Shown here: piece by piece, positions 2,964 to 52,674 of the stretch
Layout of the letters: every line of letters starts with the position of its first letter
Numbering within the stretch: the stretch's first letter is position 1
DNA from: Candidatus Thorarchaeota archaeon
GTDB taxonomy: Archaea; Asgardarchaeota; Thorarchaeia; Thorarchaeales; Thorarchaeaceae
NCBI GenBank assembly: GCA_020348985.1
Contig: CP070761.1
Coordinates: forward strand, 2,571,912-2,635,911
Direction of reading: 5' to 3'
DNA length: 64,000 nucleotides
Position numbers and translations under genes: made by a program
The notes under the pieces: model-generated
Database searches by the model: none
What the model was told of the DNA's origin: nothing
Seen by the model: only the letters and a program-made list of their open reading frames with translations

Positions 2964-4781
2964 CTAGGATTCGTCGTTCTTGGAGCTCTGACTGTCAAGG
3001 CGATTGTTCTCTTCAGATACACCATCATCTGTAGGTACTGTGTCGAGAATTCCCAATGCCCTTTCGAGGTCTGTACGCATCTTATCATCAAGATCTTCCA
3101 ATGGCTCTACCTCGCCGTCTAGAAGTACAACCTCCTCGCAAGAGAACGCTTCGAGGGCTGTTTCGAGTTCTTCTTTGGTTGCCTTTTCAATCTCTTCCGA
3201 TACTAGATCGTCTGCATCAAGAGCCTCCGATATCAGTGCGCGTGCCATCATCGATCCGTTTGATTCATCTGCGCTTGTCTCAATTTCGCTTTCTTCGATA
3301 AGAATAGGAACTGCCTCCTCAACTTCATCGTCAGATATAGTGACTACATCAAAGTCATCAGATGCTTCTACGGGGACCATCTCTGGTGCGATTCCTTCAA
3401 CAACCACATCATCTTCAACAGCATCTTGGACTGGTATCTCGATTTCACGCTCCTCCAAATCGGCTGAAAGCGCAGCATCAACTTCAATGAAGAATTCCTC
3501 AATGGCATCCATTTCTGAGACATCCGAAACAACAGGAGATTCTTCCGTCACAGCCGCCATGTGCTCTACAATCTCTTCTGTTACAAGATCCTCATCGAAG
3601 TGTTCAATCTCATCCTCAGCACCACCAACTTCAGGTACATCGGGGATAACAGAGGGTTCTTCAGCCACTACCTCGACAGGTTCCTCGAAAATTCCCTCGG
3701 CTTCTTCTGAGTCAGGCTCCACATCGACGTACTCAATAACTTCTTCAACGATTTCGTACTCATCTGCGTCCTCAATTATCCGACCATCTTCGTCAACGAG
3801 GATTTCTTCTACAATCTCAACTGTTTCGTATTCCTCTTCAACCTCTTCTTCTGAAACAGCAGAGGCTATTACCGCAGCTGCTTCGACAGCTTCTTCTGAG
3901 AACTTGAGCAGCTCAGAGGCTGGAAGATCAGGCAACGCCACTCCGACATACTGCGCAGCAGCTGTCATTAAGATGCGAAGCATCTCATCTCGACGGCCCT
4001 TGTCAATTGCAACCATTGGATAGGTCGGAATTCCTAATATCTTCTGAACCACCTCAGGTTTCATAGCATTTGGTTTGTCTTGCTTGTTAGCTATTGCGAA
4101 GACAGGAACCTTGGGTGCATCTCGCTTTATCAGTTTGAGAATGTCTTTGCTGATTATCACATTCCTTAGGGTTGAATCGCACACGAGAATGATAACATCA
4201 GCACCGTGGAAATAAAACCGCCAGAGTGTTCGGAATCTCTCTTGGCCTGCGAAATCCCACAGAACGAGTGAGTAGTTGCCGAAACGGATGTTCTCGACAG
4301 TCTCAAGGTTGAGTGCGATTGTAGGAACGTATTGAAGGGGAGGTGTGTCACCCAGGAGGAGATGAAGAGTAGTTGTCTTCCCTGTACCGCCCTCGCCAAC
4401 CAGCGCTATCTTCAGCCTAGTAACCACCGAAGGCTCGATTATCTCCTCGAATCTCTCAAGCACGCTATTTAGATCGGCTCTTTCAATCTCAATAGTAAGA
4501 TCGTGGGCTGCTTTCTTGACACGGTCTTGAGTGCTGAGCTCATCTTCACCCTTGTCTGTGACAAACACAAGAATTGAATCATCATTAACTTCGCTGCCCA
4601 TGAACTTGTTCTGATCGATCACCAGAGGAATATCCTCTAGTGCGTCATGGTTTTCCGCTAGCTCCTCTCTTGTTGAAATGTATTCTTCAATCTCGCTGGC
4701 CCCCACCTCAACTGGCCAGTACTGAACAGATGAGAGAATCTCATTGTCGTCCAGTCGGATAAGGAAGGCATTATGAATCAT
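2964..4781 (-). CDS. Arf-like small GTPase with N-terminal longin-like domain and long acidic C-terminal tail
   Basis: G1 GEGGTGKTT, G2 YVPT, G3 WDFAGQERFRTLWRFYF, G4 NKQDKPNAM; ~120-aa N-terminal domain; ~320-aa E/D/V-rich tail. Confidence 0.88.
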   Translation of the reverse strand: MIHNAFLIRLDDNEILSSVQYWPVEVGASEIEEYISTREELAENHDALEDIPLVIDQNKFMGSEVNDDSILVFVTDKGEDELSTQDRVKKAAHDLTIEIERADLNSVLERFEEIIEPSVVTRLKIALVGEGGTGKTTTLHLLLGDTPPLQYVPTIALNLETVENIRFGNYSLVLWDFAGQERFRTLWRFYFHGADVIILVCDSTLRNVIISKDILKLIKRDAPKVPVFAIANKQDKPNAMKPEVVQKILGIPTYPMVAIDKGRRDEMLRILMTAAAQYVGVALPDLPASELLKFSEEAVEAAAVIASAVSEEEVEEEYETVEIVEEILVDEDGRIIEDADEYEIVEEVIEYVDVEPDSEEAEGIFEEPVEVVAEEPSVIPDVPEVGGAEDEIEHFDEDLVTEEIVEHMAAVTEESPVVSDVSEMDAIEEFFIEVDAALSADLEEREIEIPVQDAVEDDVVVEGIAPEMVPVEASDDFDVVTISDDEVEEAVPILIEESEIETSADESNGSMMARALISEALDADDLVSEEIEKATKEELETALEAFSCEEVVLLDGEVEPLEDLDDKMRTDLERALGILDTVPTDDGVSEENNRLDSQSSKNDES

Positions 4782-4926
4782 CCTTCAAGGTCACCAGCCA
4801 GATTTCACAAGTCAATTGCGAATCAGCAATCCATCTGTGTTGAGATATGGATAAATCGATTGACATGTATCTAATAGTTTGTGGTGTATATGTCCTATTG
4901 AGCGTCTGTTAGACTAGCTCAAATTC

Positions 4927-5200
4927 GTAAGTAGGAGCGGGGCTCGCCCAGCCGAAGCTGATAGTGGCGAACCGTATCCGCATCCGTGACACGCTTTCAT
5001 CGGAGCATGCGAAAGAACTCAGTTCTTTATGCGCAAGTATTGGAGTGGCAATCTCGGGGAAGATGCCACAGGGGACCAATGCTTGGAAACTCGCTAGGGG
5101 GACCGTGCATTGCAGTGCGAGTTTCCATGACGGGGGGAAATCGCACATCCCGATAAGAGCAGTCAACATGAAGAGAGGCATACTGGCCTAATAACCTTAC
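4927..5200. ncRNA. Candidate structured non-coding RNA of unknown family
   Basis: Terminal pairing 4927-4935 with 5187-5200 encloses ~7 hairpins, including a perfect 11-bp stem (5084-5094/5117-5127) and a C(UUCG)G tetraloop on the minus strand (4949-4960). Confidence 0.6.
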
Positions 5201-5245
5201 TCCCCTTCACCTAGTGGAACCGCTTGAACACTAGCCAGGGCAGTT

Positions 5246-6406
5246 TTACCGCGGGAAGTTGTCCCTCAGTAGTCTCAGATGATGGTGGACAAGCTCCATC
5301 TGCTTTGCGTCGTCAGGAGTCTTTTCAAGCTCCACGATTAAAGTCTGAAGGAAGTATTCGGGGAAGAATAATCGCACACGAATATCGTTAAGCAAGAAGA
5401 GCCATTTATCGTACTCGCCAGATGGTCCCTTTCTTCTCTTTTCGGAGACTACTCTGAATTTCTTTAGCGTCTGAACGGCTGTTTTGAGCTCCTTCGGAGG
5501 AATGCCCAGGGTAGCTTCTAGTTCGGATATATTCACTGGCCTACGTCGGAGGACTACTAGCGTGTCGTAGGCATCGGGATCAGCCAAGATTGAAGCAACT
5601 GATACAGTATCCTCAGGTGTCTTTTTCCATTCTGTGAGGAATTCGAGTACCTCTCGTTTGTACTCAGCGGCGAGTTCCGGATCCAGAACCTGATTTGCAG
5701 CCTCCATCGCCATCAGCGGAGGAGCACGGAAGACTTCTAGGTCCTTTATCATGAACACACAGGTCCGGCCAATTTCGTCGACCCATTCACTCTTGACAAG
5801 TCCGAGTTCCTCAAAGGGTGAGAGGATCGAATCGACACTGACGCTTGGAAGACCAGTTACCATCTTCAACCATTCTTCTAGCTCTTCTTTGGATATGCCA
5901 CCCTTCCAGAGCTTCGGAAACACGGCCCTAGAGACTTCCTCTGAAAAGAGACGAGCTAAGCGGCTCTCATCAGCCATTCCCGCGAGCCGGATGATCCTCC
6001 TGTAGGTGTTATCAAGCTCGCCCTGCAGCTCTGCATCAGTCATAGAAATTACTGCATTAGTTATGGGTGAGACGACCGATGTTATGGCCGCCTCAAACAT
6101 CTTGGGGTCTTCGCCTGTTGTAAGAAGCAGTGAGATGCAATACTGCTCCTCTTCACGAACAATACCAGTATAATATGATGCAACTTGGTATTCCTCTCCC
6201 CCAATCCTGACGCTCAGTGATGCAAAACCTGCAGTGGCGTCTCCCATGGCGTGAGATGTGAAGATCCTCATAATCTCTGTGTTCAAGTCCTCTCGGTATC
6301 CATCCGCAAAATTCGCGGGCACCTTAGTCTTGAGGACTGCTCCGATTTTGCTATCCCAATCTATCAACAAGAGGGCTACGGGCAAGTACAGTATCTCCTT
6401 GTCCAT
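5246..6406 (-). CDS. uDENN/longin-domain protein with C-terminal winged helices (NPRL2-like architecture)
   Basis: N-terminal LLLIDWDSKIGAVLKTKVP resembles the uDENN/NPRL2 beta1-beta2 motif (F.EFHPTLGPKITYQVP); two wHTH-like segments (ISKEELEEWL..FEELGLV and VNISELEATLG..LKKFRVV). Confidence 0.6.
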   Translation of the reverse strand: MDKEILYLPVALLLIDWDSKIGAVLKTKVPANFADGYREDLNTEIMRIFTSHAMGDATAGFASLSVRIGGEEYQVASYYTGIVREEEQYCISLLLTTGEDPKMFEAAITSVVSPITNAVISMTDAELQGELDNTYRRIIRLAGMADESRLARLFSEEVSRAVFPKLWKGGISKEELEEWLKMVTGLPSVSVDSILSPFEELGLVKSEWVDEIGRTCVFMIKDLEVFRAPPLMAMEAANQVLDPELAAEYKREVLEFLTEWKKTPEDTVSVASILADPDAYDTLVVLRRRPVNISELEATLGIPPKELKTAVQTLKKFRVVSEKRRKGPSGEYDKWLFLLNDIRVRLFFPEYFLQTLIVELEKTPDDAKQMELVHHHLRLLRDNFPR

Positions 6407-6528
6407 CCGCGGCTGAATTGCGCAACTTATCAGGAAGACACATAATCGAGCATAAAAGGATTGTCACATATCATTCCGCAAAATGAGAATTCTGCCCCTT
6501 TTTTCGACCGAAGTGTCAAGATTCCAAA

Positions 6529-52586: not shown

Positions 52587-52674
52587 TGGTGCGGAGGGCG
52601 AGATTCGAACTCGCGAACACCTACGTGATAGGGATCTGAACCCTACGCCTTTGACCTGGCTTGGCAACCTCCGC
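52587..52674 (-). tRNA. tRNA-Leu(CAG), intronless, CCA encoded
   Basis: Minus strand GCGGAGG..TAGGG-TTCAGAT-CCCTA..GTTCGAATC..CCTCCGC-ACCA; long variable arm. Confidence 0.97.

Follow-up and report, generated by a model that had tools for sequence, protein, structure and literature searches.

A predicted structured non-coding RNA gene upstream of an Arf-like GTPase gene in one family of Thorarchaeota

Genomic setting of the interval

The window analysed here is a stretch of 64,000 nucleotides from a Candidatus Thorarchaeota archaeon genome (GenBank assembly GCA_020348985.1, contig CP070761.1), and positions are counted from its first letter; the nominal single contig of this genome is a scaffold in which the pieces are joined by 131 spacers of 100 N. 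The interval under study (4782-5245) is the gap between two protein genes on the minus strand. The downstream neighbour, with its start at 4781, encodes a 605-aa protein containing an Arf-type G domain (Pfam Arf, E-value 2.5e-22) and giving a weak Pfam SRPRB match as well. The upstream neighbour, with its stop codon at 5246-5248, encodes a 386-aa protein that returned no match in the Pfam search and that we take to be an NPRL2-like longin protein. The pair, presumably an NPRL2/3-like longin protein and a longin-Arf GTPase, is on that assumption likened to eukaryotic GTPase regulators.

The start codon of the NPRL2-like gene is probably TTG 6385-6383 rather than ATG 6406, judging from over 25 homologous genes (orthologues) whose coding sequence begins ATG-CCN-GTN, and if the TTG start is taken the Shine-Dalgarno sequence of this gene is GGAG 6398-6395. 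Start codons vary among the GTPase orthologues (ATG, GTG or TTG), and almost every genus shares a conserved GGUGA-type Shine-Dalgarno sequence for this gene, located around -14 to -8 (4782-4800, minus strand, in the window).

Sequence comparison across relatives identifies in this interval a structured non-coding RNA gene of about 240 nt on the minus strand of the window, running from about 5165 to about 4921 (Table 1). The NPRL2-like gene, the RNA and the GTPase gene follow one another in this order and share a strand in 23 of 23 further loci checked (genera of the family are referred to as g1, g2 and so on). In genera g5, g7 and g12 and in one g11 genome, an opposite-strand gene of about 300-330 aa, convergent with the RNA, lies between the RNA and the GTPase gene (L079:1974-2954, minus; L089:2003-2917, minus; L004:524-1447, plus); read from its sequence motifs, this inserted gene is a two-domain GNAT-type acetyltransferase.

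Conservation and distribution of the RNA gene

When 40 relatives were searched by BLASTN with the interval as query, four genera of the same family showed matching blocks at 72-86% identity. An exact three-block pattern detected the element in 20 of the 85 genomes of the family that were scanned, and the 315 other genomes of the phylum contained no instance of it. A covariance model (R1), built on the ~107-nt core of the RNA, returned one match per genome in 70 of 86 family genomes and 13 of 16 genera; in genera g2 and g14, which lack a model match, a divergent copy was spotted by eye at the syntenic site. The same model found no match in 94 genomes from 22 other Asgard families, in a run that recovered 22 of 27 family genomes, and no homologue of the RNA was found in other Asgard families at the syntenic site or anywhere. 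The preliminary description of this locus had called for BLASTN and covariance-model searches in Asgard genomes, and these showed conservation in most genomes of the family; the helices covary.

In the sister family, represented by a single genome, the two flanking genes lie 123 nt apart and are separated by an AT-rich spacer in which nothing resembling the RNA was seen. Because the sister family has the gene pair and lacks the RNA, the RNA arose inside an older pair in the ancestor of the family, which dates its birth. The predicted stand-alone gene for this RNA is specific to one Thorarchaeota family, is present in one copy per genome and always has the NPRL2-like longin gene on one side and the longin-Arf GTPase gene on the other.

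Protein coding was assessed from reading frames in the aligned homologues. Of 46 sequences, 25 keep the best frame open and no other frame does better, core lengths range from 86 to 133 nt and fall in all three classes modulo 3, and the 75-aa open reading frame flagged in the preliminary description shows no codon-type conservation. With no frame conserved and lengths in every class, a small-protein gene (a 75-aa or 90-aa open reading frame) does not account for the conservation of the interval.

Fold and covariation

In the predicted fold, the long helix P2 closes a three-way junction from which the hairpins P4 and P3 project, and the RNA continues into H1, its terminal hairpin (Table 1). The strands of P2 are unalignable between genera and their pairing is nonetheless kept: cognate strands pair with -31.2 +/- 4.9 kcal/mol, versus -19.2 +/- 5.5 kcal/mol for strands taken from different genera. 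For P4, both partners vary in 8 of the 10 pairs, the observed score was reached by 0 of 500 shuffles, and slid registers drop to 15-46% paired; one of its pairs is found as A-U (10 sequences), G.U (13) and G-C (23), with 0 mismatches. The P3 stem is absent in g5 and in one g11 genome. The one homologue in which the H1 segment does not fold is that of genome G347, and H1 interiors elsewhere range, from a 9-bp mini-hairpin upward, over roughly 20 to 55 nt.

Table 1. Positions of the predicted RNA gene, its structural parts and associated elements in the window.
Feature	Position	Strand	Basis or remark
Candidate target region in NPRL2-like mRNA: degenerate box UGGACAA (6405-6399) plus GGAG	6395..6405	-	Most relatives have (A/U)GGGAC(C/U) at this place
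BRE/TATA-like promoter box of RNA gene	5187..5201	-	Present in all genera, at constant distance upstream of P2
Predicted ncRNA gene, ~240 nt	4921..5165	-	Both ends inferred, within about 5-10 nt
P2, 5' strand of long closing helix	5141..5165	-	Pairs with 4987-5011 in MFE fold
J2/4, C-rich junction strand, CCCCGU nearly invariant	5127..5140	-	Near-invariant in 46 sequences; predicted unpaired
P4 hairpin, 10-bp stem (5126-5117/5094-5085), 22-nt loop (5095-5116) with ACGGUCCC	5085..5126	-	Covariation
J4/3, junction strand with second GGUCCC motif	5070..5084	-	Conserved; predicted mostly unpaired
P3 hairpin, C-rich loop	5045..5069	-	Different stem sequence in each genus
J3/2, junction strand with near-invariant CUUGCGCAU	5029..5044	-	Conserved block
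Small hairpin specific to genus g1	5012..5028	-	Window and G002 (different sequence); absent in most genera
P2, 3' strand	4987..5011	-	Partner of 5141-5165
H1 terminal hairpin, C(UUCG)G loop (4953-4956)	4934..4985	-	Folds in 44/45 homologues
Promoter-like box of longin-Arf GTPase gene, outside RNA	4864..4877	-	TATA-like, ~85 nt upstream of start 4781

The preliminary description had read the interval as a multi-helix RNA, and the conserved, covarying helices bear this out. Its arms 4937-4981 and 5035-5084 are real and conserved, the former being H1, with the UUCG loop on the minus strand, and the latter P3 plus its flanks. Its arm 5084-5127, given as a perfect 11 bp, is likewise real and conserved and is P4, with a stem of 10 bp here, and the small hairpin that it placed in 5005-5032 exists and is genus-specific. 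The segments 4983-5004, 5131-5152 and 5160-5185, drawn there as separate hairpins, are replaced by P2, in which the two strands listed in Table 1 pair with each other. The closing stem 4927-4935/5187-5200 is discarded, its second strand coinciding with the promoter box outside the RNA; a pseudoknot between 5070-5075 and 5201-5206 fails, 5201-5206 lying upstream of the TATA box; and the hairpin 5211-5234 is no part of the RNA, being situated between the upstream stop codon and the promoter. The repeated AGGGG(G)ACC motifs are real and read GGUCCCC on the RNA strand.

Thermodynamic stability was evaluated against shuffled sequences, as the preliminary description had advised, and the folding energy of the single sequence proved weak (z-score of -1.4 on the plus and -2.2 on the minus strand), with whole-RNA minimum free energy z-scores of 20 homologues on both strands similarly weak and non-discriminating. 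An RNAalifold run on a plain MAFFT alignment of the core was set aside as meaningless, since the variable hairpins are misaligned there. Support for the RNA is conservation and covariation, not thermodynamics. Inspection by eye for a G-quadruplex, an i-motif, a K-turn, and C/D or H/ACA boxes found that the required elements are not conserved, and a switch pairing of CUUGCGCAU with CGGAUGCGG was rejected on account of uncompensated changes.

The conserved blocks could also be DNA-level sites in an intergenic control region that yields no functional RNA, for example GGGACC/GGTCCC boxes to which a transcription factor binds, the winged-helix part of the NPRL2-like protein being one candidate, and the same hexamer does occur, in either orientation, in the leader of the upstream gene and three times in the interval. 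We consider this extremely improbable, as it gives no account of the pairing kept in P2, H1 and P3 while their sequences diverge beyond alignment, nor of the A-U / G.U / G-C series in P4.

Strand, promoter and transcript ends

The strand of the RNA was determined by comparing wobble pairs, loops and promoter elements between the two orientations. The P2 duplex is more stable on the minus strand for 12 of the 15 sequences of a first set, in which the minus reading has 57 G.U pairs and the plus reading 17, and for 17 of 22 in a second set, and H1 folds more stably on the minus strand in 20 of 20. The interior pairs of P4, read on the minus strand, contain 29 G.U cells vs 2 A.C cells; the 21 C.A cells of this helix all fall at its apical position, where the bases are probably unpaired. 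The H1 loop, read on the minus strand, is UUCG, UCCG or UUUG in several genera, and the g3 stem of this hairpin includes 3 G.U pairs. Wobble pairs, UNCG-type loops and the promoter box agree in assigning the predicted RNA to the minus strand, so that the lean of the preliminary description towards this strand, drawn from the UUCG loop, is now backed by several independent lines.

An initial assignment to the plus strand, taken from U.G pairs in one helix and from a T-run, was reversed by the wobble counts of P2, H1 and P4. The T-run is no plus-strand terminator, because it is part of the minus-strand promoter, where it forms the A-rich stretch just after the TATA box.

Read from the plus strand, the RNA would expose G-rich GGGGACC motifs and would be an antisense-oriented gene between two minus-strand genes. 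Several details would suit this reading: one optional helix that is conserved (AGCAUUGG/CCAAUACU; AAGUAUUGG/CCAAUGCUU) contains a U.G wobble on the plus strand where the minus strand would have a C.A mismatch, within the loop of P4 a small hairpin and possibly a UUGCG/CGCAA contact vary only as plus-strand wobbles, and the core folds slightly better on the plus strand in 19 of 20 cases. The better folding of the G-rich strand is explicable by composition alone, however, and the plus side has no conserved promoter box, the UNCG-type loops exist only on minus, and the wobble counts of P2, H1 and the P4 interior favour minus; we therefore regard a plus-strand RNA as very improbable.

On the minus strand, the RNA gene is preceded by a promoter box made up of a purine-rich BRE-like part and then TTC(A/T)TATG, and in one g6 genome this box takes the canonical form TATATATG. 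The gene for RNase P RNA in this genome is preceded by a box of the same kind, 25 nt from its 5' end, and related boxes occur at the SRP RNA (G001) and at one tRNA of the window. By analogy with RNase P, a TATA box 22-26 nt upstream places the 5' end of the RNA at about 5161-5167, at the foot of P2. The 3' end was set after H1, where most relatives have a run of 4-5 T and this genome has only TTT (4921-4923). The RNA would accordingly be transcribed from its own BRE/TATA promoter and end after H1. Boxes related to the one preceding the GTPase gene (4864-4877) were found in genera g3, g4 and g8.

These promoter elements bear on the role suggested in the preliminary description, that of a cis-regulatory leader for the Arf-like GTPase. 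A leader or riboswitch on the minus strand would fit the GTPase start, which lies on the same strand 150-330 nt downstream of the RNA in most genera, and H1 with its T-run could serve as a terminator. We find this role improbable: the GTPase gene has a TATA-like box of its own downstream of the RNA, giving the two separate promoter boxes; the opposite-strand GNAT gene separates the RNA from the GTPase gene in four lineages (g5, g7, g12 and one g11 genome), in which the RNA stays conserved; the sole candidate alternative pairing (CGCAU/AUGCG) is broken and uncompensated in G391, G345, G014, g11 and g15; and no Rfam riboswitch matches.

Comparison with known RNA families

Searching the window with Rfam 15 at gathering thresholds gave a tRNA at 52590-52674 as the sole match, and searching 4700-5400 at E-values ≤ 10 gave as the sole match a chance snoRNA hit outside the element. 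The Rfam search proposed in the preliminary description thus returned no known family in the interval, and its label of a novel non-coding RNA stands for an RNA that is conserved, single-copy and covarying and that has no Rfam match at E-values ≤ 10.

A divergent SRP RNA was considered and rejected, with no match to the archaeal model (Archaea_SRP, RF01857) and with 39 of 41 relatives having their SRP RNA at loci other than those of the element's homologues. Neither RF01857 nor the SRP RNA of a same-genus genome detected an SRP RNA in this genome, where it probably lies in the unassembled part. RNase P RNA (RF00373) was also rejected: the copy of this genome is located elsewhere (160 bits), and GGAAACUC pairs locally here as a hairpin. 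The RsaE family model (RF01820) gave no match at E-values ≤ 10.

In size and topology the new RNA resembles the S domain of SRP RNA, with a long helix leading to a three-way junction with two hairpins, but it differs in lacking a model match and the helix-8 and helix-6 motifs. Its neighbours recall the SRP receptor, through the weak SRPRB match of the GTPase; the SRX domain of SR-alpha is longin-like.

A second resemblance is to C-rich small RNAs of the RsaE/RoxS and Staphylococcus RNAIII type, which share with the new RNA a stand-alone gene and unpaired UCCC-like motifs in loops and joiners. Through these motifs the new RNA could pair with G-rich sequences of ribosome-binding sites. Compared with RsaE/RoxS, the new RNA is two to three times larger and is built on a conserved three-way junction, its motif is GGUCCC and not an anti-Shine-Dalgarno sequence, and it is archaeal and confined to one family. 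Archaeal small RNAs that mask ribosome-binding sites are known, for example sRNA41 of Methanosarcina mazei. Protein-sequestering RNAs of the CsrB/RsmZ type are alike in exposing several copies of a short motif in a structured RNA; the motif of the new RNA is a different one, is present in 3-4 copies only, and is set in a fixed architecture rather than in a string of hairpins.

C-rich motifs and candidate mode of action

The C-rich motifs exposed in the predicted fold are CCCCGU in J2/4, ACGGUCCC in the P4 loop, GGUCCC in J4/3 and often UCCC in the P3 loop. The mean predicted unpaired probability of the motif nucleotides is 0.62, vs 0.40 for the whole RNA. With a promoter box of its own and at least two C-rich motifs predicted to be unpaired, the RNA would share the gene layout and the exposed motifs of the base-pairing C-rich small RNA class.

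A possible partner of these motifs was found in the 5' UTR of the NPRL2-like mRNA, where (A/U)GGGAC(C/U) stands directly 5' of the GGAG Shine-Dalgarno sequence, at -21 to -9 from the start. The GGGAC(C/U) box occurs in g1 (G001), g2, g3, g4, g6, g7, g8, g9, g10, g11 and g15, and as GGGACC it is the complement of the repeated motif of the RNA; in some g3 genomes the complementarity, as judged by eye, reaches 8 nt (AGGGACCG). A g6 sublineage combines GGGACU in the mRNA with AGUCCC in the RNA, and the g9 genome, again with GGGACU in the mRNA, carries AGUCCCC in an additional loop of the RNA; both changes look compensatory. The sister family lacks the RNA and the GGGACC box alike.

We infer, with moderate to low confidence, that the RNA acts in trans through GGUCCC (P4 loop and J4/3) and CCCCGU (J2/4). 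The partners of these C-rich motifs would be G-rich mRNA sites, with the GGGACC box directly 5' of the NPRL2-like Shine-Dalgarno sequence as the first candidate target, and pairing there would control translation of the NPRL2-like GTPase regulator. The reading as a whole, a minus-strand non-coding RNA gene that has its own promoter and acts in trans via exposed C-rich motifs, is one we hold tentatively and rate a little below an even chance.

Several results limit the proposed pairing. The complementarity between RNA and mRNA spans 6-8 nt and in single genomes is not above chance (p from 0.01 to 0.5 vs shuffles), RNAduplex energies between the NPRL2-like 5' UTR and the whole RNA are not significant in most genomes, and in this genome the GGGACC hexamer has no genome-wide enrichment. 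This genome and g5, g13 and g12 all keep the RNA but have no box or a degenerate one, and trans pairing is a weak lead because of the degenerate box here. In genome G013, of genus g12, the mRNA box and the RNA motifs have both decayed. The genera are not independent observations, since both motifs are conserved, and the link to the box emerged post hoc. A simple antisense RNA would not need so elaborate a conserved junction, which speaks against trans pairing.

The junction and the GGUCCC motifs could instead be protein sites, possibly for products of the flanking genes, in which case the RNA would be an RNP scaffold or a sponge. The long, near-invariant junction strands, the recurrence of a single motif, 3-4 times, at structurally different places, the strict synteny with the NPRL2-like gene across the family and the persistence of the RNA where the mRNA box has been lost are all consistent with protein binding. 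On the other side, no RNA-binding domain was found in the neighbours (the 386-aa protein having no Pfam match), we know of no protein that recognises GGUCCC, and protein binding gives no account of the complementary box in the 5' UTR of the upstream gene. Taken by itself such an RNA is possible but rather unlikely; for the junction and motifs, a protein-binding role is nearly as likely as trans pairing.

Implications

A full-text literature search found no paper on this RNA, and in Asgard archaea almost no described non-coding RNAs were found beyond the universal ones. The RNA is uncatalogued and is a new family for Rfam. It is well defined, being single-copy and confined to one family, with a promoter box, a covarying fold and invariant junction strands, and it is also a marker for Thorarchaeota transcriptomics, even if its function is unrelated to its neighbours.

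Its location is of note, inside a gene pair resembling eukaryotic GTPase regulators, and the motif match at the ribosome-binding region of the regulator provides a hypothesis for control of the GTPase module. A further-reaching idea, which we think quite unlikely, is that the RNA is a working part of an Asgard longin/NPRL2-like plus Arf-like GTPase module, either binding its proteins or tuning their stoichiometry via the GGGACC box. If this were true, a eukaryote-like small-GTPase switch would be RNA-regulated, loosely as SRP RNA acts on the GTPases of SRP and its receptor.

Further observations at the locus and in relatives

Genome G002 (a MAG) contains two extra, compact, rearranged copies of the core, which are circularly permuted (L010:1455-1600, plus; L011:1470-1620, minus), closed by a new 11-bp stem and accompanied by common flanking sequence. 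These copies occur in 1 of 86 genomes and may stem from a recent duplication or represent strain variants; treated as a rearranged duplication peculiar to this species, they were set aside as evidence on the family.

The hairpin at 5211-5234, between the NPRL2-like stop codon and the RNA promoter, is palindromic, with a 6-bp stem (CTAGTG ... CACTAG), and may be a terminator or barrier element.

The same promoter pattern recurs at 6451-6467, 5187-5201 and 4864-4877 on the minus strand of the window and at about 992380-992395 on the plus strand of the whole scaffold (C1). These boxes precede the NPRL2-like gene, the RNA, the GTPase gene and the RNase P RNA gene, respectively, about 25 nt before the start, and the recurrent box could be a Thorarchaeota promoter consensus.
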